DNA from: a virus
Lineage: Duplodnaviria > Caudoviricetes
Strand: one strand, 5' to 3'
Virus record (IMG/VR): IMGVR_UViG_3300026085_000093
Coordinates: 64,001 to 128,000 of that record
Length of the DNA: 64,000 nucleotides
Shown one piece after another: positions 674 to 52,835 of this stretch (its first letter is position 1; every line of letters starts with the position of its first letter). Below the pieces are notes generated by a model that did not search any database, was not told the origin of the DNA, and saw nothing but the letters and a program-made list of their open reading frames with translations. Both the position numbers and the translations under genes were made by a program.

Positions 674-1967
674 ACGAAGTTTAAACAAGTGCGAAGGACT
701 TGTCACGGCATTAGGAAAAAATTGTAGTATTGTAACTGATTTTGACCCTGCGCCCGATCATAAACATTTTATAGATCTACCACAAGAAGTTTTTATTTGT
801 AAAGGATTTGACATTCTCGACATTACAAAACGCTTTCATCATGTAGACAGAATTTATACTATTAGTGAAAACTTACTTCCTATTCAAGCACAACTAGAAT
901 CATTTTACGGCATTAAAAATATCAGTGCATTTGCAGCAGAAGTCTTAAGCAACAAACAGAAGTTTGACGACTTCTGTAGACAAATTGGTATGGATACATT
1001 AGTACCCAAAAGTATTACTCCTACTTTTTACAACCAACTCAAAACATTTAAAAACAAAGAAATGTTTAGTAAGCCAGACATTGGTACAGGAAGTAACGTT
1101 TTTTATCCAGGTGACGATGCAAGCAATCCTGTAATAGAATATAGAAGATGGAATAACATGCATCATTTCTTGGATCATATTAAATCTAAGAATATACACA
1201 ATGAATTTTTTGATTTTAACAGACAAGGTATACATGCACAACGTTTTAATTTTAAACCTTGTAAAATTATGTTTCAAGAATACATATGGAGTGAAGAACC
1301 TAGCATTAGTCCTTACGGCTATGTGAAAGATGGTAGAGTAAACATTGCATTCTATGTAAAAAATAGTAAGATAAAATATGGCGACAAATTAGATCATAAT
1401 AGCAATCCAATCGAAAGTCATAGTAAAAGTAAAAAAAGTGATATTGTTAGGGAACGTGCTGTATGGATTGTAACAGCAGACGAAGTTCCTGTAGACTTTC
1501 CGAAACTATGTCAATTCTTTTTACAAACTATTGTAGACAAACTAGCAATCAAGGATATGTTTTTTGCAGGTCCTGACTTTCATTTTAATAAAGGTAGAAA
1601 AGTTGCAATTGACTTTAATCCACGACCAGGACAATTTGTTAACATATTAGACAGATTGAATGATGGCAAAATTATTAGTAATATGTTGCAAGGAAAAGAA
1701 ATAAATTTACAAAAAAGATTATTGTGGGGATGTGCTGTATTAGAACCTGGAAAAGTTAAAGAGGTAAAAGACTTAGAAAATATTTCACCTTATTTGAATA
1801 AACAAAATACAGAAATAAAAAAGGGTATACGTATTCCAGAATTTCAAAATCTACAAGACAAAAATTTTAATGTAAATTTAGATATTACAGGAACAAATGA
1901 ACAAGAATTATTTGATAATTATATTTCTGTAAATAATTCATTAAGAGCAAATATATTGGTCGAGTAA
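648..1967 (+). CDS. ATP-grasp domain protein (amide ligase-like)
   Basis: SNKQKFDDFCRQIG (cf. DK..M), KPDIGTGS loop, FQEYI and DFNPRPG (cf. ExNxR). Confidence 0.75.
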   Translation: MKTLIISHERSLNKCEGLVTALGKNCSIVTDFDPAPDHKHFIDLPQEVFICKGFDILDITKRFHHVDRIYTISENLLPIQAQLESFYGIKNISAFAAEVLSNKQKFDDFCRQIGMDTLVPKSITPTFYNQLKTFKNKEMFSKPDIGTGSNVFYPGDDASNPVIEYRRWNNMHHFLDHIKSKNIHNEFFDFNRQGIHAQRFNFKPCKIMFQEYIWSEEPSISPYGYVKDGRVNIAFYVKNSKIKYGDKLDHNSNPIESHSKSKKSDIVRERAVWIVTADEVPVDFPKLCQFFLQTIVDKLAIKDMFFAGPDFHFNKGRKVAIDFNPRPGQFVNILDRLNDGKIISNMLQGKEINLQKRLLWGCAVLEPGKVKEVKDLENISPYLNKQNTEIKKGIRIPEFQNLQDKNFNVNLDITGTNEQELFDNYISVNNSLRANILVE

Positions 1968-2582
1968 AGCTTTAAAGCAGTCTGTATCAAACTTTAAACA
2001 CACTACAAGCATAATACAATCATCAACTGTGCTGAAAACAGTGTGTCTTTTATTAGCATTAAAGTAAAACAAATTACTATCATCATACTGTGGTATTGTA
2101 TCTTCATAAACAAATTTTAAAAAGTGTTTATTACAATTATGTACAAAACCAATTAATCGTATTTCATCGTAATCATATGTTGTTTTATTAATATCATAGT
2201 GTTCAGGAAAAAACCCACCTTCATCTAATTTTAAAAAATGACAGCGTCCTAGCCATGGTTTAAAAGGTTCTAAAATACTTTGTAATGTAGGACTAGCCTC
2301 ATATACAGGTGTAGGCTTATCTATGTCATGATTGGTAATATTAGTATTATATTTTTTATTATATTCTGAAAGACTATCTAAATCAGGAATACCAGAAAGT
2401 CCGCCATCTAAACTAGTAACACTTAATCCCCATCTATTGTTTGGTTTTCTAGTGTTATATGGCTTCCAATCATCTTTGAATGGTGCAATTTCTTCCATAA
2501 GTTTGTCATGATTAAAAATATCTAATTCTAACCAATCTCCCATCATAGATAATCGTTGCATTGCAATTAATTGTTCGTTCAT
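1941..2582 (-). CDS. 2OG-Fe(II) oxygenase, aspartyl/asparaginyl beta-hydroxylase-like
   Basis: FFPEHYD (HxD) and distal HTVF. Start moved from the track's 2594 to ATG 2582, which overlaps the upstream stop (ATGA). Confidence 0.7.
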   Translation of the reverse strand: MNEQLIAMQRLSMMGDWLELDIFNHDKLMEEIAPFKDDWKPYNTRKPNNRWGLSVTSLDGGLSGIPDLDSLSEYNKKYNTNITNHDIDKPTPVYEASPTLQSILEPFKPWLGRCHFLKLDEGGFFPEHYDINKTTYDYDEIRLIGFVHNCNKHFLKFVYEDTIPQYDDSNLFYFNANKRHTVFSTVDDCIMLVVCLKFDTDCFKALLDQYICS

Positions 2583-3100
2583 ATCACTTCCCAAATATTT
2601 TGCTTCGTATAGAAGACTTCTACATCTTTTTCAACTAATTTACATAATCCTTGCGGAATAAAAACTTTTTCAACAACTTTATTTGTTCTAAAACTGTTTG
2701 GACTTTTATCAACTTCGCTATTTGTTGTAAAAACTATTCTTTTAGCATCTTTGCTTTTCGCATACTCAATTTGATAAGGAAGTATATGACCCCAATTAAA
2801 ATCATTATGCATCTTTTTGATACTTCCTGGTGCTTTTCCTCTGTATTCTTTAAGTGTTGCAGTGCGCAAACAAACTCTGTAACTATCTGGTATATAATCG
2901 TCAAAAGCGTGGCAGCCGCTTATGCTAACAATTTTATTGTCAACCCAAGTACACCACCACGCTTCATCTTTCCATTTGCCGAACTTCATAGACGCCTCTG
3001 AAACATTATTTTCTAATCCTTGTTCGGCACACGACTTCATAAAGTCATATATCTCACTAGGTAGATTGTCTACATAAAGGCGTCTAATTTCGAAGTTCAT
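2579..3100 (-). CDS. GNAT-like acyltransferase
   Basis: IVSISGC strand followed by RTATLKEYRG, resembling GNAT motif A. Confidence 0.5.
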   Translation of the reverse strand: MNFEIRRLYVDNLPSEIYDFMKSCAEQGLENNVSEASMKFGKWKDEAWWCTWVDNKIVSISGCHAFDDYIPDSYRVCLRTATLKEYRGKAPGSIKKMHNDFNWGHILPYQIEYAKSKDAKRIVFTTNSEVDKSPNSFRTNKVVEKVFIPQGLCKLVEKDVEVFYTKQNIWEVI

Positions 3101-3864
3101 TGTGAAAAGTTTACTACTGCTTCTTCAAACATGGCTAGATTCTCTGGCGTGCCGCCAACATAAGTTGTTGTACCAGAAAATTTGTCTTGCCATTCTGGTG
3201 TCATAGATAGATTACCTACGATAGCACGAAGTTCTGTTGTAGTGTTGTTGTCTAACAAAACCGTGTTAATTGCATCAACAAAGCGGAAACCTAGATCACC
3301 TGCTTGGCTAAATGCAAAACATGTTGTATTGGCATCTTCTTCAATAGCAGATTGTCTAGTTGTAATAGTAAAGACTGTATCTGCATCACCTGCAAGATAC
3401 CCTTTTGTTGTACTACCGCTGCCTCCGAATGGTACCACTATAAACTTTGCACCAGTTGTTTGTTCTAGGTTACCTAAGAATTTTGCTACTGGCGCACTTC
3501 CCCATGTTGCAATTTTAACTTCTTTTCCGTTAAGATCTTCTAGTGTTGTAAATTCTCTACTACACATCATAGTTTCATATGTCATTAGAGCAACAAGTGT
3601 GTCTTCACTTACTTCTACTGATGGCATTTTAGGATCTCCAGGCCATTCACTACTCCAAATAGTAAGTGCATTGCCTTTTGCTAAATAGGTTGATGCTGTT
3701 ACAGGATTATTTGCTTGTACAAATTGATGATCAATTTTGTTTCCAATTTCAGTTAATACTTGTCTAAAAGCACCTTCTTCTGAACCTGGATTTACAATTA
3801 AAATTTCTGCGTTTGCAGATGTTGCAATAAACATTGCTGTTAGTGCTGTGATAAATTTTTTCAT
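3097..3864 (-). CDS. tctC: TctC/Bug-like periplasmic substrate-binding protein
   Basis: Signal peptide MKKFITALTAMFIATSANA; VPFGGSGSTTKGYLAGDAD resembles Bug/TctC VPYKGG...LLGG.VD; adjacent to tctA; AGGAG SD upstream. Confidence 0.65.
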   Translation of the reverse strand: MKKFITALTAMFIATSANAEILIVNPGSEEGAFRQVLTEIGNKIDHQFVQANNPVTASTYLAKGNALTIWSSEWPGDPKMPSVEVSEDTLVALMTYETMMCSREFTTLEDLNGKEVKIATWGSAPVAKFLGNLEQTTGAKFIVVPFGGSGSTTKGYLAGDADTVFTITTRQSAIEEDANTTCFAFSQAGDLGFRFVDAINTVLLDNNTTTELRAIVGNLSMTPEWQDKFSGTTTYVGGTPENLAMFEEAVVNFSQ

Positions 3865-3872
3865 TTTTTCTC

Positions 3873-5162
3873 CTAAGATAATATTATAACAGTCCTTACA
3901 AAACTTTCATAGAACAAGTCACTAAGGAAATATCCATAAATGACTGGGCTCGTATCGTAATTTCGTAGAAAATATCCTAGTACCATTGCAATCAGTATAC
4001 ATGCTATCATCCATTCGTGTATAGGAAAGATAACAACACTTATTACACTTATAGTAGTTAGGATCAATGTATTTGCATATACTCTATATTGCTTATAAAG
4101 ATACACTATTTGACCTAACAGATTAAAACCATACCAACTTAAAAGTAAACATATCAATGTCACTACAGGTATAAAGTAAAGTATAGAAGACAGTTTGTTT
4201 ACTGTGTTTTCTATATTAAATTGATAACCACTTTCTAACATCAAGTAGTATACAATTACTTCACTACCCGTAATAGGTATAGCAAGGATTAGCAAAGGCA
4301 ACAAACTAGATAATGCTCCGCTATTGTTAGCAGCCTCTGCGGCAGCAATGCTTTTAAGTACAGGCTTTTTAAAAAAGCGTTTTACAATGCCTGCACTAGC
4401 ATAACTACCAAGAATATTTGTTATGCCAGGAATAAGACCGCACCAAAATCCAATAAAGCTACCTAACAGGCTTGGACCAAATGTGCCTTTTCCTATTGCA
4501 TACTTACTTATCTTGCTAGGTTGGGAAATAGAAATGTTATGAATTTTTAGTATCTCAGGAAACAGATATAATCCAATCATTACACTTGCAAAAGGTATTC
4601 CTAAACTAAGATAAAAATTGTTAAAAACAAGAAACTGATCAAATGTAATTGGATCAATTCCTTGATGTGATATTAATCCTCCAAAACAAAACAGTAATAA
4701 TGTCAAAAGTTTATTCTGTTTTGTAAAAAATGTAATCATACATATTGCAACTAGTATTACAATTGTTTGTATAATACTGTTATAAAATTTGAATACATGC
4801 ATAATACTAGGCAAGGCAACTAAAAACAAACACATTGCAAATGCTACACCAACGGTGCTACTAATTGCGTTACTTGTTACAGCAAGGCCGCCTGCGCCTT
4901 TTTGAAACATTTTATGTCCGTATCTTGCTGTGCTAATTGCAGTAGCATCTCCGGGTATACCGTATAAGATTGCTGTAACACTATTAGTATAGTTAGTAGT
5001 AATAAGTATAGCAACATAACACGCCATAATATTAACCGCACTAGTTGACGCTAAAAACGGGTATAAGACACCAATAGCAACAAATGGACCAGCACCAGGT
5101 ACTAAACCGGCTAAAAGACCAGTTAGTAAACCGATACCACTCCAAATTCCTAATTCAATCAT
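3873..5162 (-). CDS. tctA: tripartite tricarboxylate transporter large permease TctA
   Basis: Multi-pass hydrophobic protein with GLVPGAG, AILYGIPGDATA...GHKM..KG, GLIPG and AAAEAANNSG..SSLLPLL.LAIP.TG motifs typical of TctA. Confidence 0.85.
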   Translation of the reverse strand: MIELGIWSGIGLLTGLLAGLVPGAGPFVAIGVLYPFLASTSAVNIMACYVAILITTNYTNSVTAILYGIPGDATAISTARYGHKMFQKGAGGLAVTSNAISSTVGVAFAMCLFLVALPSIMHVFKFYNSIIQTIVILVAICMITFFTKQNKLLTLLLFCFGGLISHQGIDPITFDQFLVFNNFYLSLGIPFASVMIGLYLFPEILKIHNISISQPSKISKYAIGKGTFGPSLLGSFIGFWCGLIPGITNILGSYASAGIVKRFFKKPVLKSIAAAEAANNSGALSSLLPLLILAIPITGSEVIVYYLMLESGYQFNIENTVNKLSSILYFIPVVTLICLLLSWYGFNLLGQIVYLYKQYRVYANTLILTTISVISVVIFPIHEWMIACILIAMVLGYFLRNYDTSPVIYGYFLSDLFYESFVRTVIILS

Positions 5163-6114
5163 TAACTATTATTTTTCTATCAACTACGCTGTTTGGTGTA
5201 ATCATTTCTTTATCGTTGTTGCTAATTTTACAACACATTTCTCTGCATACTTCAGGACATTTACCCCAAGTTAACAAGTTACTAAAGTTTAAAAATTTAT
5301 CTTTAATACTATCTAAACCTTCTGATATGTGTCCTAGAGAACTTATGTCGTTATCTATCCAACAACAAGGATAATAGTTACCTTGAGAATTTATATAATG
5401 CATATCGCCAGTATAACAGAAGGGTGCTAATTCGTCAAGTGTTTCTCTTTTTACATAGTCGAACCATTCTGGATTATAATAGTCTTTAATTTGACCATTA
5501 TTCGACATGTCATCATGTATAGTCCAACTTTTTTTAATTTTAAATTCATTCATGCCTATTTTTTTACTTAAGGCTATTGCTTCTTCAACTTGATGATGAT
5601 TGTGTTCAAAAACAATATACTTCCATCTAATCTGACATTTGCGTTTAGTAGTTGCTATAAGTTCAAAAAGTTCTTGTATTTTGTTCCAATTGCTGTTAAC
5701 TCGGTATATGCTATTAGTGTCTTGCAGTCCATCGATGCTAAGTTCAACAATACTAGACTCGGGCCATGTTTCTAGTACTCTTTGCCAAAACTCTTTTGTT
5801 TGCATACCGTTTGTTGTAACTTGCAATTCATTTGCCGAGAAAAAATGTTCTGAAATTTTGTGGAAATCAGGATGATATATAGGATCTCCTAAATTGCCTT
5901 GAAAAAATATGTAATCATATTTTTCAGGATTGGGCAAAAAATTTAGTAGCAAATCACTATCAATGTCTGACTTAGAACCAGGCCCGTGCATAGTTCTAAT
6001 ACATGCAGGACATGCTAATGGACATCTGTTGGTTAGTTCAATGTGCCAGCCTGTATATTTAAACTCGTCCAAAGGCCCATCTACGTTCATAACACCACCA
6101 ACATTCTGTTTCAC
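5155..6114 (-). CDS. radical SAM protein with C-terminal SPASM/twitch domain
   Basis: CPLACPAC (CxxxCxxC), GNLGDP, SIDG, C-terminal FC...YPCCW...C..VC..MC. True start possibly ATG 6090. Confidence 0.9.
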   Translation of the reverse strand: MKQNVGGVMNVDGPLDEFKYTGWHIELTNRCPLACPACIRTMHGPGSKSDIDSDLLLNFLPNPEKYDYIFFQGNLGDPIYHPDFHKISEHFFSANELQVTTNGMQTKEFWQRVLETWPESSIVELSIDGLQDTNSIYRVNSNWNKIQELFELIATTKRKCQIRWKYIVFEHNHHQVEEAIALSKKIGMNEFKIKKSWTIHDDMSNNGQIKDYYNPEWFDYVKRETLDELAPFCYTGDMHYINSQGNYYPCCWIDNDISSLGHISEGLDSIKDKFLNFSNLLTWGKCPEVCREMCCKISNNDKEMITPNSVVDRKIIVND

Positions 6115-6802
6115 AATGATCTTCGAAATCGTTTAGTGCAGGACCATTTCTATTTTCACAAGACCTTGTAATGTCAAATAATTCCATAATATCATAGTGA
6201 TGATATAATTCTGCTACTTTCCTTTTATCATGACTAATAAAAGGTCTTACCATAGGAAACTTTTCGTCTTTTCCTCTCCAACTAGACCAATGGACTGCGT
6301 TTTCAGGTTCGTCTCTTTCTGCTGCCCTTGTATTCCAATCAGCATTAGAGATATCATCAGGATGTCCATCAAAATCAAACTCTATAGGTCTTGTGTATTT
6401 AGGATTACAAGGCCAAAAGTTTTTTCCTTCTTCTTCGGGAGGATTTGCTGTAATGCCTGCAAATGTAATATCAATATCTCTGTTTAAAATTAAATTCCTA
6501 ACAAGTTCTTCTTGTTTAGAATTATATTCTTCATATCTGCATACAGCACAATGTGTATCTTTGATTTCAATATTAGGATATCTATTTCGCATCCATTCAA
6601 TTACTCTTCTGGCAAATTTTATATTGTACGGTTTAACATCTGCTGTAGCAGTGATTGGTTGAATATATTCAATATCTATATTCTCATCAGTTATTTTTTT
6701 ACAAATCATATAAAGAATCATTGCACTGTCAGGTCCACCTGACAATTTTATACCAATTCGTTTAGTTCCATGTAAATCTATTGTAACTCCTTTTTCAATC
6801 AT
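6059..6802 (-). CDS. QueC-like PP-loop ATPase (adenine nucleotide alpha-hydrolase)
   Basis: IGIKLSGGPDSA PP-loop; C-terminal TRSC...HCETECWWCYER resembles the QueC Zn site. Confidence 0.7.
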   Translation of the reverse strand: MIEKGVTIDLHGTKRIGIKLSGGPDSAMILYMICKKITDENIDIEYIQPITATADVKPYNIKFARRVIEWMRNRYPNIEIKDTHCAVCRYEEYNSKQEELVRNLILNRDIDITFAGITANPPEEEGKNFWPCNPKYTRPIEFDFDGHPDDISNADWNTRAAERDEPENAVHWSSWRGKDEKFPMVRPFISHDKRKVAELYHHYDIMELFDITRSCENRNGPALNDFEDHCETECWWCYERRWAFGRV

Positions 6803-6821
6803 AACTTCTCCTATACACTAA

Positions 6822-7928
6822 TTAGTTTTTGTATTCATAAATCCACTCAAACCTGGGCTCTACATCTAAAAGGTGTTGTCCTCTAATATTGTCTAATGTT
6901 GTTGTGTAAGAATACAAATTGTGTAACAGTTCGTATTGTTTGTCTATGCTTATACTAAATAAATCAACTGCACTAGTTGCAAAATATTTTTTCCAATGAG
7001 AATAGTTTGTAGTTTCTAATATTTTTTGTTTTATATGTAAAGGTGTAATCAACGGATTTAGATACATAGGATCAAGAACTTGATGTCCAAGATCAATAGC
7101 GTGTTCTATTTTACTCTGCAAACTATCAAAATTATAGATACCATAAATGTTTGCAGTATAAATCCATCCAATTTCATTTGCATTAGGAAACGTTTTGTAA
7201 GATTTCCAATTATATAATGATTCTTCAAATGTAAATTTTCCGCCTCTAATGTATTGATACATCTCTCCATCAGATTCTACTGAAAAGAAAATATTGAGTT
7301 TATCAAATTTAGCAAACAATTTCTTTTCATCTTTGGTCAATCTATGTGTACCATTAGTGATAATCTGTAATGTTACGTTATGCTTGTTTGGAATACATTC
7401 TATAAACTCAAAGAATCTTGGATGCATAAAAGGTTCACCGCCTTTGATAATAACATACCTTAAAAAATCTAAACTAGATACAAATTTTATCATATCGCCA
7501 TCTATATTATCAAGAATCTTATTATTATCAAAATCGTCTAATGTAAAATTAACTTTATCTTTGAGTTGTCTATCTATTATCCAACTAGACGACTGTCCAG
7601 GATTACACATTCTACATTTGAGATTGCATAGATTGCCTATATCAATATCTAAAAATTCTATATCAAAATTTACCTGTTGACTGAACCAATCGTAATGATA
7701 TAAACGTCTACTTTGTTCGTTTCTCACTTCTCTATTTGTACAAGAAATGCACCCTTTCGGAACATGTTGATCAAAATCTTTTATAGCATTTGTTCTGTCA
7801 ACATTCAAAGAGTTGTAGTCAGTAAATTTTCCAAACTTATAAGTGCTATGGCCGCAAGGATTTAGGTTGCCTGTAGAATCTACAGATAGACCTTTATAAG
7901 CAAACCAGCAACTAGGTTTAGATTCCAA
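6822..7928 (-). CDS. radical SAM protein with N-terminal twitch-like domain
   Basis: CNLKCRMC, GGEP, N-terminal C...PCG...CxxC...SRR. The track starts at 8030; TTG 7928 avoids a long overlap with the upstream gene. Confidence 0.9.
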   Translation of the reverse strand: MESKPSCWFAYKGLSVDSTGNLNPCGHSTYKFGKFTDYNSLNVDRTNAIKDFDQHVPKGCISCTNREVRNEQSRRLYHYDWFSQQVNFDIEFLDIDIGNLCNLKCRMCNPGQSSSWIIDRQLKDKVNFTLDDFDNNKILDNIDGDMIKFVSSLDFLRYVIIKGGEPFMHPRFFEFIECIPNKHNVTLQIITNGTHRLTKDEKKLFAKFDKLNIFFSVESDGEMYQYIRGGKFTFEESLYNWKSYKTFPNANEIGWIYTANIYGIYNFDSLQSKIEHAIDLGHQVLDPMYLNPLITPLHIKQKILETTNYSHWKKYFATSAVDLFSISIDKQYELLHNLYSYTTTLDNIRGQHLLDVEPRFEWIYEYKN

Positions 7929-8577
7929 CAAACTCTTTATACCTTTGCGTAACTTTACCTGTAATTTTTGCAATGTTTCTAGGCCATGGTCCAGTGTTAG
8001 CAGTGCTATGTGGTATGTTTGCCCAATCAAACCAAATTACATCTCCTGCATGCCAAGGTGGTACGTAGGTATTACCAAATTGAATAATATGTCCAGGTGC
8101 CCAATCATCAAGCATTACAAAGCATCTACCCCATTCATCGTCTGTTGCTCTACTACTTGTTTGATCTGTACGTTCTTTTCGTAAACCAGTTAAACTATCT
8201 ATATGCAAGTGTAGCATCATTCCTGTATGTTGAGTTTGAATGTTTGTTTGTGCATTTTCTAAACCAATTTGTTCGGCTAAACTGTTTAGTATTGGTGTTT
8301 CATCCGTTGTTGTCCACTGCCTGTATACAACAAAGTCTAGGGGTATCCCCCAATCCTTGCAAAGCAATTCTTCATAGTCATAATTAAAACTGTCACCTTC
8401 TGGAGACACAGGTGAAGGCCAATAAAAGTCATATTGATTAGCATTTGCAATAGGTATTTCATCTTTCCATGTAGGTTCAATATTTCCTACAGTTCTAAAG
8501 CTTTTGCCATGGTCGCTTTCTCTGAACGGATTGAAATCATAATTGCTTTGCTTAACTGTAACATCCCATCTGTTCAT
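7918..8577 (-). CDS. 2OG-Fe(II) oxygenase-like protein
   Basis: HLHIDS (HxD) and IPHSTAN; paralog of 8574-9146. Confidence 0.7.
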   Translation of the reverse strand: MNRWDVTVKQSNYDFNPFRESDHGKSFRTVGNIEPTWKDEIPIANANQYDFYWPSPVSPEGDSFNYDYEELLCKDWGIPLDFVVYRQWTTTDETPILNSLAEQIGLENAQTNIQTQHTGMMLHLHIDSLTGLRKERTDQTSSRATDDEWGRCFVMLDDWAPGHIIQFGNTYVPPWHAGDVIWFDWANIPHSTANTGPWPRNIAKITGKVTQRYKEFVGI

Positions 8578-10053: not shown

Positions 10054-10055
10054 GT

Positions 10056-22276: not shown

Positions 22277-22302
22277 TATAGTTCTCCATTAATATTAGCA
22301 TA

Positions 22303-29897: not shown

Positions 29898-30117
29898 TAT
29901 CGTATACTAACTCCACATCCACGCCAGGGCCAACTTTACTAGGTAAATCACCATACTGATCGATATACCAGTGTATGACAGCACAATACCAGTTCCAACT
30001 ATTATGGTGTGCTTCTTTGTTAAACTGCCATATGTTGTTATTGGTTGCTTGCATTGTACTCAGTGCTCTTGCACATTCTAATTGCAACTGTCTAGTTGTA
30101 AACTTACTTAAATCCAA
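29890..30117 (-). CDS. small hypothetical protein (75 aa)
   Basis: Fills the gap between co-directional genes with short overlaps at both ends; TTG start. Confidence 0.6.
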   Translation of the reverse strand: MDLSKFTTRQLQLECARALSTMQATNNNIWQFNKEAHHNSWNWYCAVIHWYIDQYGDLPSKVGPGVDVELVYDNV

Positions 30118-38384: not shown

Positions 38385-38391
38385 GCAATAT

Positions 38392-44849: not shown

Positions 44850-45814
44850 GTTTCTTGTTTCTCAATTTGTTGTAGTATCCACTGGTAGGTTTGTTGCAAC
44901 CCATATTCTAAATTATCTTGTGGTGCCCATCCTATAGTTTCTTGAATAAGTTTGTTATGACTATTTCTACCGTTTACACCGACGGGACCTGGCACATTAT
45001 TAATTGTAAGTTTTTTATTAGTATTAACACTTGCAATTAAGTGTGCTAAATCATTTATAGCAATCATACGTTCACTACCAAGATTTAACGGCTGATTATA
45101 ATCGCTTTCCATAATTCTATGGATGCCTTCAATAGCTTCATCGATATAAAGAAAACTTCTTGTTTGTGTGCCAGGTCCCCAAATTTCTACAGTTTCGTCT
45201 TCGCTCATTGCAACTTTTCTACATAAGGCGGCGGGAGATTTTTCTTTACCTCCAGTCCATGTGCTTTCTGGTCCAAATACATTATGAAAACGACACATTC
45301 TTGCACGTATACCGTAATTCTTTTCAAATGACATACACAAACGTTCGCTGAATAATTTTTCCCAACCGTATTCAGAATCGGGATTCGCTGGATACGCACT
45401 TTCTTCACTACACAAAGGATTATCAGGATCCATTTGATTGTGTTCAGGATACATGCAAGCACTTGAACTATAAAAAATACGTTTTACACCTTTAACAACC
45501 ATTTCTTTTAAAATGTTAAGATTTATCATTGCAGAGTTGTGCATAATATCAGCATCGTTATCTCCTGTAAAAATATATCCTGCTCCTCCCATATCCGCAG
45601 CAAGTTGATATATTTCATAGATGTCTTCTGTAATTAATTTGCGTACATCTGCTTGTTCTCGCAAATCTACAATATGAAATTCATTGCATTCAGTTTCGCT
45701 GAATTCAGGATACTCTAAATCTGCACCGATTACATAGTGTCCTTGTGCTTTTAAACTTCTTACTAAATGAACTCCTATAAATCCGCCTGCGCCGCATACT
45801 AATATTTTACTCAT
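44846..45814 (-). CDS. GDP-mannose 3',5'-epimerase-like extended SDR
   Basis: GAGGFIG, LAADMGG, SSACMYP, YGWEK (YxxxK), GGKEKSPAALCRK; includes the Cys and Lys that GME uses as catalytic residues. Confidence 0.85.
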   Translation of the reverse strand: MSKILVCGAGGFIGVHLVRSLKAQGHYVIGADLEYPEFSETECNEFHIVDLREQADVRKLITEDIYEIYQLAADMGGAGYIFTGDNDADIMHNSAMINLNILKEMVVKGVKRIFYSSSACMYPEHNQMDPDNPLCSEESAYPANPDSEYGWEKLFSERLCMSFEKNYGIRARMCRFHNVFGPESTWTGGKEKSPAALCRKVAMSEDETVEIWGPGTQTRSFLYIDEAIEGIHRIMESDYNQPLNLGSERMIAINDLAHLIASVNTNKKLTINNVPGPVGVNGRNSHNKLIQETIGWAPQDNLEYGLQQTYQWILQQIEKQET

Positions 45815-47118
45815 ATGTCTGCTCCATATTTTTCAACAAGATCTAATAATTCTACAGGTTTTAAATTTTTAAAATGCTGAATATTATATTCTCGTATTTC
45901 ATGTGTTTGTGTATATAACTGTTTTAGTTTTTGTTCAGGCCAAGACTTGATATCTTTACATACTTTAATAATTGCTTCCATTCTGTCTTTGGCGTTTAAT
46001 ATTTCATCATAACTTTCGTCCCACCAATTATCAAAAGTTTTAAATCCTAACTTTTTAAGATACTGAAGTGTAAACGCAGGACCAACAATAATAAAAGGTT
46101 GTTTGAATATAATTGGCTTCATTGTTTTTTCTGTCAAATGAATTACATTATTTTCAAAATTTGTTTCGCTTGCAAGATGAATATATGTTCGATCATACCA
46201 TTCAGCAGTATCCATTAAGTGTTCTTCTACAGGAAATCTGTCAAAATGTTTACTGTCTAACACAAAAGGCAAATCGTCCCATAAATTTTCAAAATCTTCT
46301 CTTTCAAATCCTAAATTATATTTTGAAGAAGTTCTTTCAAAATCGTATATAAAATGTTCAAAAGGTCTATTGACACCTCCGTGTCTGTCAAAACTCATAT
46401 GACAGTCATCTAGCATATCATTTTTAATCATCTGTAATAACAGCAACATACGATGTTCATGGCTACGTCTGTTAAAATTTAAAAACAATCTATCTTGCTT
46501 GCCTAAGTCAACACGGCTTTCATAAACTTCATCACGTAAAATGTCTTTTGTAATTTGTATATACAAACCCATATATTCAACATTTAATTTATCTTTGCCT
46601 ACACCTGCTTGTAAACAGTACTTGTCGTAAATAGTTTGTATATTTGCACAGTTTGTTGCATAGATAACTTTATTTAAAGGTACACCTTGACTATTAAAAT
46701 AATCATGTAGAGTTTGAAAATCTCTATGCGTAACAAAACTTTCGTATCTACAGTTTACAAATAGATATCCATTACCATTATAAATCCTATCCCAAACTTC
46801 TCCGGGAATAGGTGTTCTTTGTAAAAATCCGCAAAACTGATCCATTGTAATAGACATGTAATTTAAGTTAGGACTTAAAATAACTTCATAAAAAAACTTT
46901 CTATCGCCTATATCTTTTATTTCAGAAGAAGGAATAATTTTGCAAGGTACAAAATTTCCTATTTCCATAACAGCAGGATCATGTTCCATTGTTGCATCAC
47001 TAAACTTAACATCAATGTCGTCAATACGTTTAGCGAGATCATATATGTCAGGTATCTTATGGTTATTTAAAGGACCTAGTGGTCCAATCCAATTATATGC
47101 CCAAATCAACTGTTTCAT
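45811..47118 (-). CDS. GT-B/GT10-like (ITEK motif) protein
   Basis: FLNFNRR.HEHR, ASET...LTEKTMKPI..KQPF..VG...LGFKTF...ESYD. Confidence 0.55.
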   Translation of the reverse strand: MKQLIWAYNWIGPLGPLNNHKIPDIYDLAKRIDDIDVKFSDATMEHDPAVMEIGNFVPCKIIPSSEIKDIGDRKFFYEVILSPNLNYMSITMDQFCGFLQRTPIPGEVWDRIYNGNGYLFVNCRYESFVTHRDFQTLHDYFNSQGVPLNKVIYATNCANIQTIYDKYCLQAGVGKDKLNVEYMGLYIQITKDILRDEVYESRVDLGKQDRLFLNFNRRSHEHRMLLLLQMIKNDMLDDCHMSFDRHGGVNRPFEHFIYDFERTSSKYNLGFEREDFENLWDDLPFVLDSKHFDRFPVEEHLMDTAEWYDRTYIHLASETNFENNVIHLTEKTMKPIIFKQPFIIVGPAFTLQYLKKLGFKTFDNWWDESYDEILNAKDRMEAIIKVCKDIKSWPEQKLKQLYTQTHEIREYNIQHFKNLKPVELLDLVEKYGADI

Positions 47119-47944
47119 GTGTTAATTCACTTATATCGTAACTATTCTTAAAATTTTTCATACTGTCCATTTTTTCAAGCATTAATTCTTGGTTATATAT
47201 ATTTTCTCTTACAGGTACAAATATTTCATTACAAACATATTTGTTATAATGTGTCATATTATTTGTAGCAATTTTTAGTTTTGGTGCTAAAATTTCTTTT
47301 ATAAAATTATATGTTTGTTCAGGTTTAGGATGATCATCAACCCAGTTTCCTCCCACATTTGTCATAAAAATTGGCTTTTTTTCTTTAAAATGATGATATA
47401 AAGGCAATTCTATAAATTTATAACGAAGTTTGTTTATTTTGTGTGTCATGTTTTGTGCAATATGTTTATTATGTCCTACTAAATCGTTATGTTTTCCTCT
47501 TTGTATACTTAGATGTGCCATAGCATCTGGTGTAAGAAACATAAAGGTCCAATTTACTTTTAAAGATTCTAGCAAGCGTATTGTATGAAACATGTATGTT
47601 AATGTTTTTATATATGATGTAGTAGGACTCATAATGTAATCTAATTTTGCTGTTGCTAATTCTATTGCCAAGCCGCCGCCATGATTTGACCATTCTTCTT
47701 CTTTTTCGAGATAATCAATTCTTGTAGGTTCTGACCATTGAACAATAACAGTGTCGTTTTCTTTGATTTTATTTGCTAACACACATCCTAATAATCTATG
47801 ATAAATGGCAAAATTACCTATACCTGCTAAACCGCAGTTAAATGTTTTATCAAATTGCTGTGCCAAATATTCAGGATACATAGGCCAACTGTAATTTGTA
47901 AAACTACAACCATAACAAAACAAATTAGGCAACTTGTAATTCAT
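47093..47944 (-). CDS. SGNH/GDSL-like protein
   Basis: YGCSFT, GIGN, VQWS...R.D, DDHP. Confidence 0.6.
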   Translation of the reverse strand: MNYKLPNLFCYGCSFTNYSWPMYPEYLAQQFDKTFNCGLAGIGNFAIYHRLLGCVLANKIKENDTVIVQWSEPTRIDYLEKEEEWSNHGGGLAIELATAKLDYIMSPTTSYIKTLTYMFHTIRLLESLKVNWTFMFLTPDAMAHLSIQRGKHNDLVGHNKHIAQNMTHKINKLRYKFIELPLYHHFKEKKPIFMTNVGGNWVDDHPKPEQTYNFIKEILAPKLKIATNNMTHYNKYVCNEIFVPVRENIYNQELMLEKMDSMKNFKNSYDISELTHETVDLGI

Positions 47945-49307
47945 CCTTAGTCTGCTTACACAAATTATAAAAACCTTCCATCTCAGGAAATGTTTCTAAA
48001 AAGTTTACATTTCTTCTTACATCATATTCATTAAACCAATTATAAAAATCTGCTCTGCCTTCTTTTACTCTTGGTTCGTCATAGTTAACATTTGCAAAAT
48101 AATTTCTTACTCTACGAAAACGCTCATATTCTAAATCACTAAATTTTGTAGTGTCTTTGTCGTCTCTATTGTCATCAATAAATTGTAAAATTTTATCCAT
48201 GTAAGGCAAAAATTCATCCTTAGGTAAAATATGCATGTCATATTGTAACGGTTCTTTTAGATAAGGTGTATCAAATCTAATACGTCTACGCTTAGGATCA
48301 TAAAATTCTTTACGCCAATCTAAAACTTTTTGTAGGAATAAATTAAAACTTGTAACACTAAGAATATTAAACGTACACATGATTGTCAAATCAGAGCCAG
48401 TAATATTTAAAAAGTTTTTCATATTACTTTCCCAAAGATTTACATCTAAACCTGTTCGAAGATATTCTGCACGATTGTCAAATGTATCCATACTAGAATA
48501 TACTTTAAACTTTTTAATTTTGTTACCTTCTAAAAGTTCTTTTACATTATCAGCAAACTTAGACACAATACGTGGACTTAATCCCATATTACTATTGAGG
48601 TTAAGTTCAATATGAGGACGTGGATTTTCTTTAAGTTCGTCAAATATACGCCATGTGCTTTTATGCATAAGAGGCTCACCTCCTGTAATCCGTAAAATGT
48701 TTAGTGTCTTACTTACTTCAGGCCACCATTTCCACCATGCATCTACGTAAGGATTTGACCCTTCTTCCATAGGCTGGAACCAATCAACATCGCACCTATG
48801 ATTTTTTACCATATCATACGGACCATGTTTTTTGACTTCGTTATAGAAACTACTACTTGCCATAGGTGAACAATATCCACATTTAAAATTACATTCATTA
48901 CTAAATGCAATTTCAATATATTCTGGATTTACGTTAAAGTCCCAAGGAGAATCTACAATTTCTTGTAATCGCTCAGGCTTGTAAATACTTTCATTACGAA
49001 TGTTTCTATCAGAAATATGATCATCACCTAATGCTTCAACATTCCAACAATAAGTACAGCCTTTAGGTTTTTCACCTACAAGCATTTTTGCACGTTCTTT
49101 TTTCTTTGTAAGTGTATTGTGCAATGCACTAGGATTGTTTTTAATTTCTTGTAAATCAATCTTATGCGGTGGCGGATGATAACAACTGTGTGTATCACCT
49201 GTATGTAAATAAATTGTAGTATGATGCCACTTGGCCAAACAGAATGTAGGACTTACATCCTCCATTATACCAGCAGCTTCTTTAATTCTATCTGTTTCTG
49301 ATTTCAT
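47925..49307 (-). CDS. twitch-domain radical SAM protein (CYH subtype)
   Basis: FCLAKW...HSCYHP...CTYCW...SDR, CNFKCGYC, TGGEP. Confidence 0.92.
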   Translation of the reverse strand: MKSETDRIKEAAGIMEDVSPTFCLAKWHHTTIYLHTGDTHSCYHPPPHKIDLQEIKNNPSALHNTLTKKKERAKMLVGEKPKGCTYCWNVEALGDDHISDRNIRNESIYKPERLQEIVDSPWDFNVNPEYIEIAFSNECNFKCGYCSPMASSSFYNEVKKHGPYDMVKNHRCDVDWFQPMEEGSNPYVDAWWKWWPEVSKTLNILRITGGEPLMHKSTWRIFDELKENPRPHIELNLNSNMGLSPRIVSKFADNVKELLEGNKIKKFKVYSSMDTFDNRAEYLRTGLDVNLWESNMKNFLNITGSDLTIMCTFNILSVTSFNLFLQKVLDWRKEFYDPKRRRIRFDTPYLKEPLQYDMHILPKDEFLPYMDKILQFIDDNRDDKDTTKFSDLEYERFRRVRNYFANVNYDEPRVKEGRADFYNWFNEYDVRRNVNFLETFPEMEGFYNLCKQTKDELQVA

Positions 49308-50242
49308 ATAAATTGTTGTCCAGCGGTTCTTCCCGGATTTTGATATACTGTTTTAAAAAATGCACTTTGCTGTGCATTTAAACATTCTTCAGCAATAGGA
49401 ATATCAAGTTCGTTAATAAGTTTAATGCCGTATTCTTCAATAGATTCTTCTAGTCCGTCCATTGATACTTTTGGTTCAACTTCATTCCACATGTTGTTTA
49501 AATATTTAAAATCACGAACATTTACATAATCCCAATCTGTACACATAGTTTTATATAGACCTTCGCGAGCACCGTAAACAGCCCATTTGCCGTTTTCTAC
49601 ATCGGCACCTATCATTAACCAAATATATAAACGATGCAAGTTCTTCCAATGATTACGTTTAAAATCATTTAAAGTAGGTTTCATACCTCTGTCAAGTGCC
49701 ATTTTTACACCTTCACGAAAGCCAGCACGCCAGGCTTGCTGAGGAGTAGCATTATTCATAATTTCACTATAACATGCATTCATTTGAATGTATTCTAAAT
49801 CCCAACAAAAATCTACCTGGGCGTGTGGGTTGTTAGGATCTGCATTTTCATGTGTACGCATGGCTAGTACTTTATCTTTAGGCCAACACTTGATACCACC
49901 GTTACCATACATTAGTCCATTAATTGTATTTCTAGCACTCCAACTAATAACACAATCTTCAAACTTTATATCACGATTCCAGTGGATATCTTCGTGTGTG
50001 TCTAAGTTATATTCTTTTGCAAGAAACTCCGAATTAATGATGTTATCACCGTCAATAGTAATAAATCTATCAGTTTCGCTTAGTTCTGCACATGCCTTAT
50101 GTGCTGCATCACTGCCTTCTACGCCATGTACACGTTTAGCCCAAGGAATTTTCCTACACAAATCTGCATAGTTTTTTTCAGCATTAGGTTCGTCATAACT
50201 AAGATAGATAATGTCATAGTCTAGTATTTTAAATTTGCTCAT
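49304..50242 (-). CDS. GT-A glycosyltransferase-like protein
   Basis: YDIIYLSYDEPNA..NY, RVHGV.G...AH, TIDGD (DxD), YGNGG.K, FRE; homolog of the C-terminal domain of 30999-33563. Confidence 0.65.
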   Translation of the reverse strand: MSKFKILDYDIIYLSYDEPNAEKNYADLCRKIPWAKRVHGVEGSDAAHKACAELSETDRFITIDGDNIINSEFLAKEYNLDTHEDIHWNRDIKFEDCVISWSARNTINGLMYGNGGIKCWPKDKVLAMRTHENADPNNPHAQVDFCWDLEYIQMNACYSEIMNNATPQQAWRAGFREGVKMALDRGMKPTLNDFKRNHWKNLHRLYIWLMIGADVENGKWAVYGAREGLYKTMCTDWDYVNVRDFKYLNNMWNEVEPKVSMDGLEESIEEYGIKLINELDIPIAEECLNAQQSAFFKTVYQNPGRTAGQQFI

Positions 50243-50807
50243 TCACCATTCTCCGACAGTAGGTATCGAATTTTTTAATAGTATACACACTTATGTCGGT
50301 TTTGTCTACCTTAAAATTATCATCAAATGCAACTTTTACAATATTTTCTTCAATCAAATCTCTAAAACCAAACTTGATAAACTGCAACAGATTATGAGGA
50401 TCATTGAACTCTGTAATTGAAAATTGCATAGGAAAATTGTAAAAAGAATCTTTAGATTTTGTTTCTTTTACGATCGCAGTATCGAGTTCAAATACCCATT
50501 CTTTGTTTTTACAATCTTGTGTAACAACAACGTCTGCTTTTTCTTTAAACGGAATTTCAAAAATATCATACCATATATCGGTATTAAAGTCTACTGCTAT
50601 AAGTTTATGCTTGAGTTCATATTTTTTTGTAGTGCTATCAAACGCAACACTATAATTTGTCATAGAATCTTTTGCATCTAAAATATCTTTCACTGCATCA
50701 ATGTCTACTTCAATCCAATTGCCTTCTTCAGATTTAGTATTGCTTACTGATAAAAGTTCTCCATTTTCATCAAAGTAAATAAATTTATTGGTAGATATTT
50801 GTAACAT
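50229..50807 (-). CDS. hypothetical protein
   Basis: 192 aa ORF with AGGAG SD, co-directional and abutting; no motif recognised. Confidence 0.7.
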   Translation of the reverse strand: MLQISTNKFIYFDENGELLSVSNTKSEEGNWIEVDIDAVKDILDAKDSMTNYSVAFDSTTKKYELKHKLIAVDFNTDIWYDIFEIPFKEKADVVVTQDCKNKEWVFELDTAIVKETKSKDSFYNFPMQFSITEFNDPHNLLQFIKFGFRDLIEENIVKVAFDDNFKVDKTDISVYTIKKFDTYCRRMVNEQI

Positions 50808-51662
50808 TTAAACTCCTACAAGTTTTTCATAAATTTCTATAATTCTATCATTTACAAAATCATCTTCTGTATAATGAAAAACGCCTTGCTGAAAATAATT
50901 GCCTATTTTTAATTTGCCGTCATTTGTAAGATACGTGCCTACATACTTCTGCCAACTGTCTACCTTTACATTAGTCCAATTTTGGCAATGTAACTTCATG
51001 TGTGTAAAATGAGGATAATCTCTTACTTTGCAAGTGACTTCATTTTCAATTCCAAGAATTTTTATAATTATTGCAGTAAGCATGTCAATACTTGCTACAC
51101 GTTGGTAATATTTGCCTCCTGCAAACTCTCCTTGAAACTTTTCCCAATTATTAACTGCTAGTTCTAACCATTTAAAATAAGTGTGCGCTAGATCAGATTT
51201 TTTAAAATAATAAAATCCTACATAAGTATCAGGCAAATGAAATTTATCAAATGCTGGCCTATAAAATCTACTTGTGACAATATCATTTCTATATGTTCTT
51301 ACATTTGATGTAAAAAATAAATCCTTTGTTTGTAAAAATTCCCACCAACGGCTAATGTCATCTAGCACAAGCATATCAACATCTAATACAATTGTACTAT
51401 CATATGGAGTAACATGATAAACTTTCCAACGATTATGAATCTTCCATTCCTGTCCTTGTGCAGCATCACCCCACGGTATTTCTTTTATGTAATCAAATAG
51501 ATTTTGATATTTGTCAGGCACAATATCATTTGTTACCAAACAAATTGAACTGTTTGGGTTTGAGTTTTTAATACTCATTGCACAAAGACACGCTTGTTGA
51601 ACATAATCAACATCTGTGTTTTGTGCAAACAATGTAAAATTAATCTTTGAATTCTGGGACAT
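50808..51662 (-). CDS. GT-A glycosyltransferase (GT8-like)
   Basis: A..CAMSIK, TPY..TIVLDVDML (DxD), H.K motif; paralog of the neighbour. Confidence 0.7.
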   Translation of the reverse strand: MSQNSKINFTLFAQNTDVDYVQQACLCAMSIKNSNPNSSICLVTNDIVPDKYQNLFDYIKEIPWGDAAQGQEWKIHNRWKVYHVTPYDSTIVLDVDMLVLDDISRWWEFLQTKDLFFTSNVRTYRNDIVTSRFYRPAFDKFHLPDTYVGFYYFKKSDLAHTYFKWLELAVNNWEKFQGEFAGGKYYQRVASIDMLTAIIIKILGIENEVTCKVRDYPHFTHMKLHCQNWTNVKVDSWQKYVGTYLTNDGKLKIGNYFQQGVFHYTEDDFVNDRIIEIYEKLVGV

Positions 51663-52491
51663 ACATTGCTCTCGTTAAACTAAACTTATTCATTACATGT
51701 ACATTAGAACCCCTAATTCTTAGTGGCATGTAATTACCAAAACTATCTTTTTTCTCTACACAAAATAAAAAATTATCGCCGTCAATATCAATAAGCAAAT
51801 CTCTATCAATTGTATAAAACAATTTACCAGGTAAAGTTTTTGCAAAACCGTTTTTATAGTGTCCGTTCATTATATGTATTGCAACACTGAAAACATAATC
51901 ATTACGAAAAATAGCACTTTTAATTTGATATAAATTTCTATAGTGTTCCCAGTTTTCTGATATATGGTGAAGCAGATCAAAAAAACGTTTGTTGTCAGGA
52001 CTTTTTCTAAAATATACACAAGTTGCCCAATAAAAGTCTATTGTTTTGTCGCTGCATAATTCAAACTCTGATACATCTCTCCAGCCACTAAGTTCTACAC
52101 TATCTTTGTAAATTAAGAAATCATGTAACTGATTAAAACAATCTTTTAACAAACTATTTGCAATTATATAATCTGTATCTAGCAATAGTGTTTCATCATA
52201 AGGAGAAAGATCATATGCTTTTGCTCGTGAAGTGTTTTTCCATTCTAAATTTCTTTTAGAATATGTTCCATCGTTGTATTTTCTATATCCATAATCTTGA
52301 TCATTTGGAATTTCTATAACATGTTCGAAAGGATGACTATCAAATCGTGTTTCTAAATATTCTTTGTTATCTGTGATTACCGAAACAGGTACACCTAGAT
52401 ACTTGTGTACTCTGTGTGCATTAAACACTGCTTGATAAAGATAGTTAATTTCTTTATTGTTTCTTGCAATAAAGAGGACACCTTTGCTCAT
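51640..52491 (-). CDS. GT-A glycosyltransferase (GT8-like)
   Basis: GVLFIA, SPYDETLLLDTDY (DxD), RND..FS.A.H, HVMNK. Confidence 0.7.
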   Translation of the reverse strand: MSKGVLFIARNNKEINYLYQAVFNAHRVHKYLGVPVSVITDNKEYLETRFDSHPFEHVIEIPNDQDYGYRKYNDGTYSKRNLEWKNTSRAKAYDLSPYDETLLLDTDYIIANSLLKDCFNQLHDFLIYKDSVELSGWRDVSEFELCSDKTIDFYWATCVYFRKSPDNKRFFDLLHHISENWEHYRNLYQIKSAIFRNDYVFSVAIHIMNGHYKNGFAKTLPGKLFYTIDRDLLIDIDGDNFLFCVEKKDSFGNYMPLRIRGSNVHVMNKFSLTRAMYVPEFKD

Positions 52492-52835
52492 ACTTCTACA
52501 ATATCCTTTGTTGACCTCTTTTTAACAAGTTTGTTATACTCTATAAGATATTTGTTATTTGCGTTATAAAATTGATTCATTACTTCTAACACAAACAGTT
52601 TTAAATTTTCAATTTGAATAGGAATATCATGATCGTCGATTAACACAGTCTCTGTTTGATTCATGCCTATTAATGTTTGCAAGTAACTTATAAGTTCCAT
52701 GCTAATACTAAATTGTCCTTTGTTATGATAGCAAACCAAAGATTCTTTATACTGCTCTTTCAATATGCGTTTTGTATTTTCTAATGTAATTAAAAAATTG
52801 GCAGAATCTATTGCCTGTTCGAGACGATCGTCCAT
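52488..52835 (-). CDS. hypothetical protein
   Basis: 115 aa ORF with AGGAG SD and an upstream TAAATA motif; first gene after the structural block. Confidence 0.7.
   Translation of the reverse strand: MDDRLEQAIDSANFLITLENTKRILKEQYKESLVCYHNKGQFSISMELISYLQTLIGMNQTETVLIDDHDIPIQIENLKLFVLEVMNQFYNANNKYLIEYNKLVKKRSTKDIVEV

Follow-up and report, generated by a model that had tools for sequence, protein, structure and literature searches.

A fibre-linked array of glycosyltransferase and radical SAM genes in an uncultured marine jumbo phage, and the rare-sugar glycan that it may build

Large gene islands beside tail fibre genes have been described in marine myoviruses. Zaragoza-Solas et al. (2020) reported from pelagimyophages and cyanomyophages a hypervariable "host recognition cluster" (HRC), with a mean length of 44.6 kb in pelagimyophages, that holds fibre genes, many glycosyltransferases (GTs, mostly GT8), UDP-glucose 6-dehydrogenase and radical S-adenosylmethionine (SAM) cassettes varying between close relatives; its function is unproven (PMC7029224). 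Here an array of 52 open reading frames (ORFs) is analysed in the 64,000-nucleotide window formed by bases 64001–128000 of a 236,366-bp IMG/VR virus contig (IMGVR_UViG_3300026085_000093; 35% G+C). It occupies the minus strand from 1941 to 52835 of the window (about 51 kb, or about one fifth of the contig) and joins 15 radical SAM enzymes and seven glycosyltransferase-like genes to the end of the tail fibre genes. With a probability of about 45%, we read it as a cytoplasmic phage pathway for a rare-sugar glycan with aminoglycoside-like tailoring, whose likeliest acceptors are the phage's own Ser/Thr-rich fibre proteins.

In position the array is like the HRC: it is large, lies among the structural genes and follows a giant gene and the tail fibres. 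It also carries glycosyltransferases, Ugd and radical SAM genes, and shows gain and loss of cassettes among relatives, here as a shared proximal module against unique distal genes. It differs in belonging to a phage of another lineage, akin to PA5oct, Atu_ph07, Phosso and SCTP-2, and its 15 radical SAM enzymes, amidinotransferase, GDP-mannose 3,5-epimerase (GME) and B12 chemistry go well beyond the published description (PMC7029224). The HRC is bounded by the neck gene gp14, whereas the far boundary of the array is a convergent junction with plus-strand genes; gp14 was not looked for. Two further marine myoviruses carry many radical SAM genes or the same pairing of aminotransferase and amidinotransferase: the T4-like genome TARA_ERS488813_N000010, with 12 radical SAM genes listed as Fe-S-related (Nishimura et al. 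2017; PMC5332604), and cyanophage S-SCSM2R, in which a DegT-like, amidinotransferase and radical SAM trio was named "antibiotic synthesis genes" in 2025 (PMC12801897). In contrast to the array, the passages of these two papers dealing with the genes do not tie them to fibre genes or glycosyltransferases.

An earlier, sequence-only reading of this stretch had presented the pathway as uncharacterised. This holds for its product, while the novelty was overstated, since islands joining glycosyltransferases, Ugd and radical SAM cassettes to fibre genes had been published in 2020 (PMC7029224) and the genome with 12 radical SAM genes had also been noted (PMC5332604). The kind of island is already known. 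What is new is the presence of such an island in a PA5oct/Atu_ph07-like jumbo lineage, its scale of 15 radical SAM enzymes and seven glycosyltransferases within 51 kb, a conserved fibre-proximal glycosyltransferase module set against variable tailoring cassettes, and the combination of aminoglycoside-like with GDP-L-sugar chemistry.

The glycan gene clusters of chloroviruses and mimiviruses decorate virion proteins. Self-encoded virion glycosylation in mycobacteriophages was reportedly described by Freeman et al. in 2023. In these systems, as in the array, soluble glycosyltransferases and rare-sugar enzymes lie beside structural genes, and the virion proteins are decorated independently of host export machinery. 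They are made up of one to about 12 genes, none of them for a radical SAM enzyme, and their glycans have been shown by mass spectrometry, whereas the array is known from its genes alone. The remaining likeness is to aminoglycoside tailoring: a homolog of StrB1 (streptomycin), a twitch domain matching that of BtrN (butirosin), a DegT/StsC-type aminotransferase and two KedN5-like enzymes are present, the DegT-like gene standing beside the amidinotransferase, and the array has the aminotransferase, amidinotransferase, radical SAM enzymes and glycosyltransferases by which an aminoglycoside cluster is recognised. In contrast to such clusters it has no cyclitol synthase, and it forms part of a phage late operon in which seven glycosyltransferases are encoded.

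Enzymes of the array

The seven glycosyltransferase-like proteins, all soluble, comprise two that are GT8-like, two GT2-like proteins of the GT-A fold and three of the GT-B fold (genes are cited by window position). The AlphaFold model of 45811–47118 (predicted local distance difference test, pLDDT, 92) has significant PDB neighbours that are all GT-B, with VIA Z of 9–11 over nearly the full length, and its best VIA match is a phage glycosyltransferase; 43620 and the two-repeat protein 39564 are its paralogs. A structure model was needed here because the GT-B family profile gave no true match against PDB sequences. Other viral proteins fuse a GT-B domain to an epimerase, which supports a coupling of the GDP-mannose epimerase with the GT-B enzymes flanking it. 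Membership of the GT10 fucosyltransferases was considered for 39564, 43620 and 45811 and is unsupported, there being no PF00852 match at E-values up to 10; FUT11 figures as one of many GT-B neighbours (Z 8.8, the best having 10.9), and the atlas link to GT10 stands at 0.78–0.79.

The model of 49304–50242 (pLDDT 85) has a GT-A fold and an invariant DGD motif, with ThuS, SunS and ppGalNAc-T, which glycosylate peptides or proteins, among its top structural neighbours, and TarP a further neighbour; the C-terminal domain of the 854-aa product of 30999–33563 is paralogous to it. A profile of 50808 and 51640 matched glycogenin/GT8 (E-value=2.5e-6), both proteins carrying an LDTD motif, and its best solved relative is the self-glycosylating glycogenin. 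The approximately 110-aa repeats of the 854-aa protein recur at 44–46% identity in an 842-aa protein encoded elsewhere in the genome (contig 189421–191949, +; 3421–5949 of locus L008), which seemingly lacks the catalytic end and directly follows giant fibre-like proteins of 2334 and 3373 aa. The common repeats hint at a connection with the virion.

Among the sugar enzymes, 38392 is Ugd by Pfam, and 44846 is a homolog of the GME of Arabidopsis (E-value=1.7e-101). Judged by homology, the array can thus supply two or more activated sugars, UDP-glucuronate through Ugd and GDP-L-galactose or GDP-L-gulose through the epimerase. The product of 35980 is a full-length homolog of StrB1 (inosamine-phosphate amidinotransferase, 1BWD; E-value=8e-96), with a paralog at 21230. 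The DegT-like aminotransferase, 37016–37738 (−), is short (240 aa against about 360 aa in the family) and its start overlaps the 2-oxoglutarate (2OG) oxygenase gene by about 95 nt; its ratio of nonsynonymous to synonymous substitution (dN/dS) against a sister contig is 0.08. Three proteins (28108, 35106 and 47093) are DUF6071/SGNH-like, 35106 matching the DUF6071 protein 28108 at 91% in hhalign, and may handle acyl groups. Gene 6059 encodes a PP-loop ATPase, weakly matched to QueC below the family cut-off, which could activate carboxylates; it recurs in the arrays of relatives, at times in two copies.

All 15 ORFs that the sequence-only reading had taken for radical SAM enzymes match Pfam Radical_SAM, and the CxxxCxxC motif is kept in 15/15. 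Nine of them (6822, 15692, 16842, 20017, 22303, 23483, 25791, 33563 and 47925) score 171–416 bits with NF033640, the NCBIfam model for a "twitch domain-containing radical SAM protein" (N_Twi_rSAM), above its curated cut-off of 170 bits. The contig holds 11 such proteins; the two outside the array lie among plus-strand genes (contig 33266–34327 and 50568–51758, both +), and the former match holds an in-frame TGA. The family is defined by computation, and no characterised member was found; the array is an expansion of it to nine diverged paralogs (19–35% identity) in one operon. In these N-twitch proteins the Pfam SPASM match lies at about residues 7–97, N-terminal to Radical_SAM, with C13, C94, C97 and C150/C154/C157 invariant. 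Profile positions 7–74 find their best solved match in the twitch domain of BtrN (E-value=7.5e-8), in which the order is permuted relative to the present family. The substrate that BtrN oxidises is an aminocyclitol. Since BtrN supplies the best solved match, we infer that the N-twitch paralogs may tailor sugars by oxidation, epimerisation or deoxygenation.

Besides these, two radical SAM enzymes are B12-binding and KedN5-like (E-value=6.5e-76 for the one in the GDP-L-sugar module, with scores far below the family cut-off), three small ones are mutually related, and one further enzyme stands alone; the two B12 enzymes resemble C-methyltransferases, which leaves 13 others. One of the small enzymes is divided into two ORFs, an arrangement that recurs in a relative 43–46% identical (L016). 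With dN/dS of 0.14 and 0.08 for the two parts, a true two-piece enzyme seems more plausible than a frameshift error. The trio at 28830–31012, composed of a 302-aa protein, a 75-aa protein and a radical SAM enzyme, is found in many viral contigs at 45–84% identity.

For the remaining inventory of the sequence-only reading the outcome was mixed. The count of about seven glycosyltransferase-like genes was borne out by fold models, profiles and paralogy, though Pfam does not see them, and Ugd, the GME-like epimerase, two amidinotransferases, three SGNH-like proteins, the QueC-like PP-loop protein and the TctA permease were likewise found. Eight 2OG-Fe(II) oxygenases had been proposed and were not reproduced: 37644 is the only clear one, and 11044 and its paralog 11532 are weakly similar to Asp/Arg-hydroxylase-like cupins. 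One of two proposed pyridoxal phosphate enzymes, the DegT-like protein, was recovered, and of three methyltransferases 9139 is clear and 10056 weak, with no third; nothing was found for a GNAT-like protein. About 20 array ORFs are orphans with no Pfam or PHROG match. Pfam searches of 20 orphan ORFs at E-values up to 10 returned nothing usable, PHROG profiles assigned no family to eight orphans of the array and fibre region, and hhalign detected no hidden 2OG oxygenase or glycosyltransferase paralogs among 17 orphans.

Linkage to the fibre genes and conservation

The phage itself was identified with PHROG profiles. Just outside the window lie a gp6-like baseplate wedge gene (phrog_10646, E-value=8e-294) and genes for a gp5-like hub/lysozyme, a portal, a gp55-like late sigma factor and gp46/47-like nuclease subunits. 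These bear out the earlier assignment to a tailed virus and led us to reject a cellular origin of the contig. Portal and gp6 are nearest to those of the jumbo phages PA5oct, Atu_ph07, Phosso and SCTP-2 (35–50% identity), which places the source among T4-core jumbo myoviruses and makes it neither a cyanomyophage nor a pelagimyophage. No similarity at the DNA level to any deposited phage was found. The contig has no terminal repeat and a CheckV completeness of 66%; CheckV estimates for related contigs all point to genomes of about 350 kb, and contigs of 343–347 kb are known. We infer that the source is an uncultured marine phage with a genome of about that size.

The array ends a single minus-strand block that runs from contig position 151,481 down to 65,941 in the order baseplate genes, 4806-aa virion protein, 206-aa protein, three fibres, two Ser/Thr-rich fibre-like paralogs and the 52 array ORFs (Table 1). 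The three fibre proteins have N-terminal regions in common, and one of them (58438–60507) contains a Phage tail Collar domain (E-value=1.9e-20). The Ser/Thr-rich pair, with 25–26% serine plus threonine, is free of cysteine; its homologs sit ahead of the array in relatives. Array ORFs overlap or abut, with a largest intergenic gap of about 40 nt, and the array's final gene runs into the end of a plus-strand gene that converges on it. The claim of some 50 abutting genes running on from the fibre and baseplate genes therefore stands, as does the stated order of structural genes, glycosyltransferases with sugar-nucleotide enzymes, radical and oxidative tailoring genes, and transporter. TctA (3873) is the only membrane protein of the array. 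Identification of the neighbouring 3097–3864 as TctC is unsupported, Pfam giving no TctC match.

The T4-type late-promoter-like motif TATAAATA occurs once in the window against 13 copies expected, and six times in the whole 236-kb contig, five of the six standing 5–29 nt upstream of a start codon. The sole copy in the window stands ahead of the first Ser/Thr-rich fibre gene, at a distance of two genes upstream from the array. The avoidance of the motif suggests that a T4-type late promoter is put to sparing use, or that the phage's late promoters mostly follow a different consensus. No terminator-like site was seen in the 40-nt gap between fibre genes and array (52835–52875), and a scan of 44001–64000 for sigma70 promoters and terminators showed no enrichment over shuffled sequences and no signal at the fibre/array junction.

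Table 1. Features of the array and of the structural genes that precede it (window coordinates)
Feature	Position	Strand	Content and evidence
Giant virion structural protein, 4806 aa, 3' part	61141..64000	−	phrog_10938 "virion structural protein", 1043 bits; gene extends past the window end
Conserved 206-aa protein and three paralogous tail fibre proteins (689, 626 and 487 aa)	55056..61129	−	phrog_11259 (206-aa protein)
T4-type late-promoter-like motif TATAAATA	55053..55060	−	25 nt upstream of gene 54141–55028
Two paralogous Ser/Thr-rich fibre-like proteins (295 and 415 aa), candidate glycan acceptors	52875..55028	−	composition; paralogy, E-value=2e-30
Conserved proximal module	47925..52835	−	115-aa protein, two GT8-like, 192-aa protein, GT2-like GT-A, N-twitch radical SAM; GT8 profile, GT-A model, NF033640 at 315 bits
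GDP-L-sugar module	39564..47944	−	SGNH-like, GT-B, GDP-mannose 3,5-epimerase, GT-B, B12-radical SAM C-methyltransferase-like, 721-aa protein with two GT-B-like repeats; fold, homology
Amino/guanidino-sugar module	35106..39567	−	Ugd, 2OG-Fe(II) oxygenase, short DegT-like aminotransferase, StrB1-type amidinotransferase, SGNH-like; Pfam, PDB homology
Radical SAM block	14517..35086	−	10 radical SAM genes (seven N-twitch), 854-aa GT-A-ended repeat protein, amidinotransferase paralog, DUF6071/SGNH-like protein, trio, several orphan ORFs
Radical SAM core (219 aa) and twitch/SPASM-like domain (92 aa) as two ORFs	24867..25791	−	14-nt overlap
Distal tailoring genes	5155..14545	−	B12-radical SAM, redoxin-like, two cupin/Asp-Arg-hydroxylase-like, two methyltransferase-like, two orphans, N-twitch radical SAM, PP-loop (QueC-like) ATPase, small radical SAM
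Array end	1941..5162	−	TctA permease, signal-peptide protein, two orphans; TctA E-value=7e-57, hydrophobicity, N-termini

An independent 256-kb contig from another sample (G001) is collinear with the window over 16.7 kb at 92.9% identity, from the giant gene through the fibres into the array, and a second match at 94.4% spans the distal array end. Since G001 comes from another sample and is collinear across both the fibre/array junction and the distal end, a chimeric assembly is excluded. A chimeric or cellular contig with the array unlinked to tail genes in relatives had been set beforehand as one refutation of the sequence-only reading; G001 and the diverged relatives alike keep the linkage. 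For 45 array ORFs, orphans included, dN/dS against G001 is 0.00–0.33, the other seven lying outside the fetched stretches of G001; the 45 are thus maintained under purifying selection.

The order giant protein, 206-aa protein, fibres, 115-aa protein, two GT8-like, approximately 190-aa protein, GT2-like and radical SAM enzymes is kept, at 25–85% protein identity, in at least seven relatives (G002, G004, G005:C3, L035, L061, L063 and L068), homologs of the giant gene occupying the same position in the first three. The size of the array ranges from about 10 kb in L035 and about 45 kb in G002 to about 51 kb here, and related records hold 8 to 19 radical SAM genes each. The distal genes of the window (TctA, methyltransferases and cupins) have no counterparts in the diverged arrays, and in one record (G003) the array is seemingly in another arrangement.

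Product and target of the pathway

Seven glycosyltransferases, Ugd, GME and an aminotransferase beside an amidinotransferase bear out the sugar-centred chemistry that had been proposed. In the pathway that we favour, nucleotide sugars would be aminated, amidinated, C-methylated, acylated or de-acylated, and radically oxidised, epimerised or deoxygenated, and the glycosyltransferases would assemble an oligosaccharide from them in the cytoplasm. No match to the phosphoglycosyl transferases (PF02397, PF00953) or to Wzx (PF01943) was obtained in the 236-kb contig, and TctA is the sole multi-pass protein of the array, both of which indicate a cytoplasmic pathway as far as gene content can tell; the initiating transferase and the Wzx flippase expected of an O-antigen or capsule locus are thus missing. 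The presumed acceptors are the Ser/Thr-rich distal fibre proteins encoded immediately upstream, probably on the same late transcripts. They are proposed because the array lies without a gap in the late structural block, because of the position of TATAAATA, because of the serine and threonine content, and because the GT-A and GT8 enzymes have protein-glycosylating relatives; as in phages that glycosylate their virions, the glycosyltransferase genes adjoin the structural genes and are co-oriented with them. The conserved proximal module would lay down a glycan core, which the variable cassettes would alter from one phage lineage to the next, giving a lineage-specific fibre coat for adsorption or protection. 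The sequence-only reading had named virion proteins, DNA and the host surface as targets; the evidence singles out none of the three and leans, from context, to virion proteins.

Several points weigh against a fibre glycan. The acceptor role is assigned to the fibre proteins from their context, Ser/Thr-rich fibre proteins are common without glycosylation, and late co-transcription is read from the layout of the genes. Similar islands have been taken to modify the host O-chain (PMC7029224). The missing Wzx and phosphoglycosyl transferases are not decisive, since host lipid-carrier and export machinery could be used and about one third of the genome is unassembled. The N-twitch enzymes could act on proteins or metabolites instead of sugars, as no member of the family has a known substrate, and TctA with the secreted protein at the end of the array hints at small-molecule exchange.

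The first rival, which we consider unlikely, is that the rare sugars are placed on host lipopolysaccharide (LPS), capsule or S-layer glycan, remodelling the envelope so that superinfection by competing phages is blocked. This is the published interpretation of the GT8-rich, Ugd-containing islands beside fibre genes of pelagimyophages (PMC7029224). The hypervariability seen among relatives would suit an arms race at the cell surface. GT8 enzymes are, moreover, typical LPS glycosyltransferases. Set against this, no membrane-bound glycosyltransferase, flippase, polymerase, ligase or initiating transferase was recognised in the array or contig, the Wzy, ligase and ABC exporter families not having been searched separately; the late structural position leaves little time to renew the envelope before lysis; and the conserved neighbours are fibre genes, not early genes. 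The phage might borrow host export machinery, which keeps some probability with this rival.

Less likely again is direct maturation of virion or other phage proteins by the 15 radical SAM enzymes, in the manner of the maturases of RiPPs (ribosomally synthesised peptides with post-translational modifications), through epimerisation, C-methylation, cross-links or hydroxylation partners, the glycosyltransferases forming a separate or extra layer. Radical SAM enzymes with SPASM or twitch domains are mostly known as peptide or protein maturases. There are weak NCBIfam matches to SkfB, PapB and ScmE, the bacterial homologs carry fused Sel1 repeats and have TPR proteins as neighbours, and the highly conserved 75-aa protein always stands ahead of radical SAM 28830. 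No Cys-rich or repeat precursor peptide accompanies them, however: on inspection by eye the small ORFs of the array are the 92-aa detached twitch domain, the 75-aa protein with two cysteines and a 115-aa protein, none with repeats or Cys-rich cores. Thioether cross-linking of the fibres is ruled out, as the fibre proteins are nearly free of cysteine. Moreover, the best solved match of the twitch domain acts on an aminocyclitol, the closest B12 enzymes are KedN5-like, and sugar enzymes make up the great majority of the neighbours.

A free aminoglycoside-like or other glycosidic small molecule is an improbable product; it might serve as an antibiotic against competitors, a signal or a modulator of host metabolism, with TctA and the secreted protein importing a precursor. 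The enzyme set does mirror aminoglycoside logic (StrB1 homolog, DegT/StsC-type aminotransferase, BtrN-like twitch domain, B12-radical SAM C-methyltransferase-like enzyme and GT-B), and the trio of cyanophage S-SCSM2R was named accordingly in the relevant passage of that paper (PMC12801897). Against a true aminoglycoside stands the lack of a cyclitol synthase, neither the 3-dehydroquinate/2-deoxy-scyllo-inosose synthase family (PF01761) nor inositol-phosphate synthase (PF07994) being present in the contig. No exporter or self-resistance gene was recognised, seven glycosyltransferases in a conserved place behind the fibres suit a polymer on an acceptor better, and an antibiotic released at lysis would be of little gain to a lytic phage.

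Phage DNA glucosyltransferases are GT-B enzymes, the GT-B model is best matched by a phage glycosyltransferase and a QueC-like PP-loop protein lies within the array, yet hypermodification of DNA, either as glycosylated modified bases or as an adduct on a base such as the 7-deazaguanine that the DpdA/FolE/QueD/QueE locus of this genome may install, is highly improbable given that over 13 kb separate the array, set among the late structural genes, from the replication and que genes, that the PP-loop gene recurs in the arrays of relatives and scores below the QueC cut-off, that the array has no DNA-binding or base-exchange enzyme, and that the scale is far beyond any known DNA modification pathway.

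Were the fibre glycan confirmed, it would alter the view of how large marine phages adsorb, which hosts they infect and how their particles survive, and radical SAM chemistry would join protein glycosylation. The glycan would be the first on a protein to be tailored by radical SAM enzymes, and phage host range would diversify at a new level. Whatever the target, the array compactly holds about 15 uncharacterised radical SAM enzymes and seven unclassified glycosyltransferases, and its defined sugar-nucleotide context (UDP-glucuronate, GDP-L-galactose or GDP-L-gulose, amidino transfer) makes the enzymology directly approachable.

Distribution of the phage clade and of the N-twitch family

The phage clade occurs in marine, estuary and aquatic metagenomes of at least seven studies. 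It may be, as a tentative extension of the fibre glycan, that a cosmopolitan clade of marine jumbo phages of about 350 kb coats its fibres with a rare L-sugar, guanidino-, C-methyl- and radical-tailored glycan, virus-expanded permuted N-twitch enzymes carrying out new sugar chemistry. Contigs of four metatranscriptome runs from four studies cover 24–29 of 30 bins over 40–60 kb at 90–99% identity, a contig-level comparison in which DNA carry-over is uncontrolled, and depth is higher over the fibre genes in two of the four. Such contigs, spanning fibre and array genes, lend weak support to transcription.

One N-twitch paralog alone has more than 4,500 relatives at E-values of 1e-10 or lower, counted as 90%-identity clusters, whereas deposited phage genomes gave three distant matches among 50,697 records and the family is almost absent from PHROGs. 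This abundance in aquatic metagenomes, against near absence from deposited phages and PHROGs, points to a major piece of marine phage biology without a cultured model.

A scan of bacterial-genome contigs for array homologs returned mostly mis-binned phage contigs. Array-bearing contigs (L075, L076/L080 and L077) were binned in metagenome-assembled genomes (MAGs) labelled Crocinitomicaceae, Gammaproteobacteria MED685 and Oligoflexia; the 108-kb MED685 contig (G005:C3) is a virus mis-binned in a public MAG, with giant virion protein, gp6, gp55, portal and about 18 radical SAM genes. Two bacterial contexts of the N-twitch family, in Elusimicrobiota and Solibacteraceae, are genuine and told no more than a shared association of radical SAM, B12-radical SAM and GDSL genes. 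In the Elusimicrobiota MAG (L081; 60% G+C), an N-twitch radical SAM enzyme is fused to Sel1 repeats (9188–11194) and neighboured by TPR proteins, two GDSL lipase-like proteins and a B12-radical SAM enzyme, so that a trio of radical SAM, B12 and SGNH proteins is common to it and the phage array. Among cultured phages, Vibrio phage K566 (255 kb) has at 161548–165950 (L105) three radical SAM genes with 21% identity to the N-twitch family, a cassette that could serve as a tractable model.

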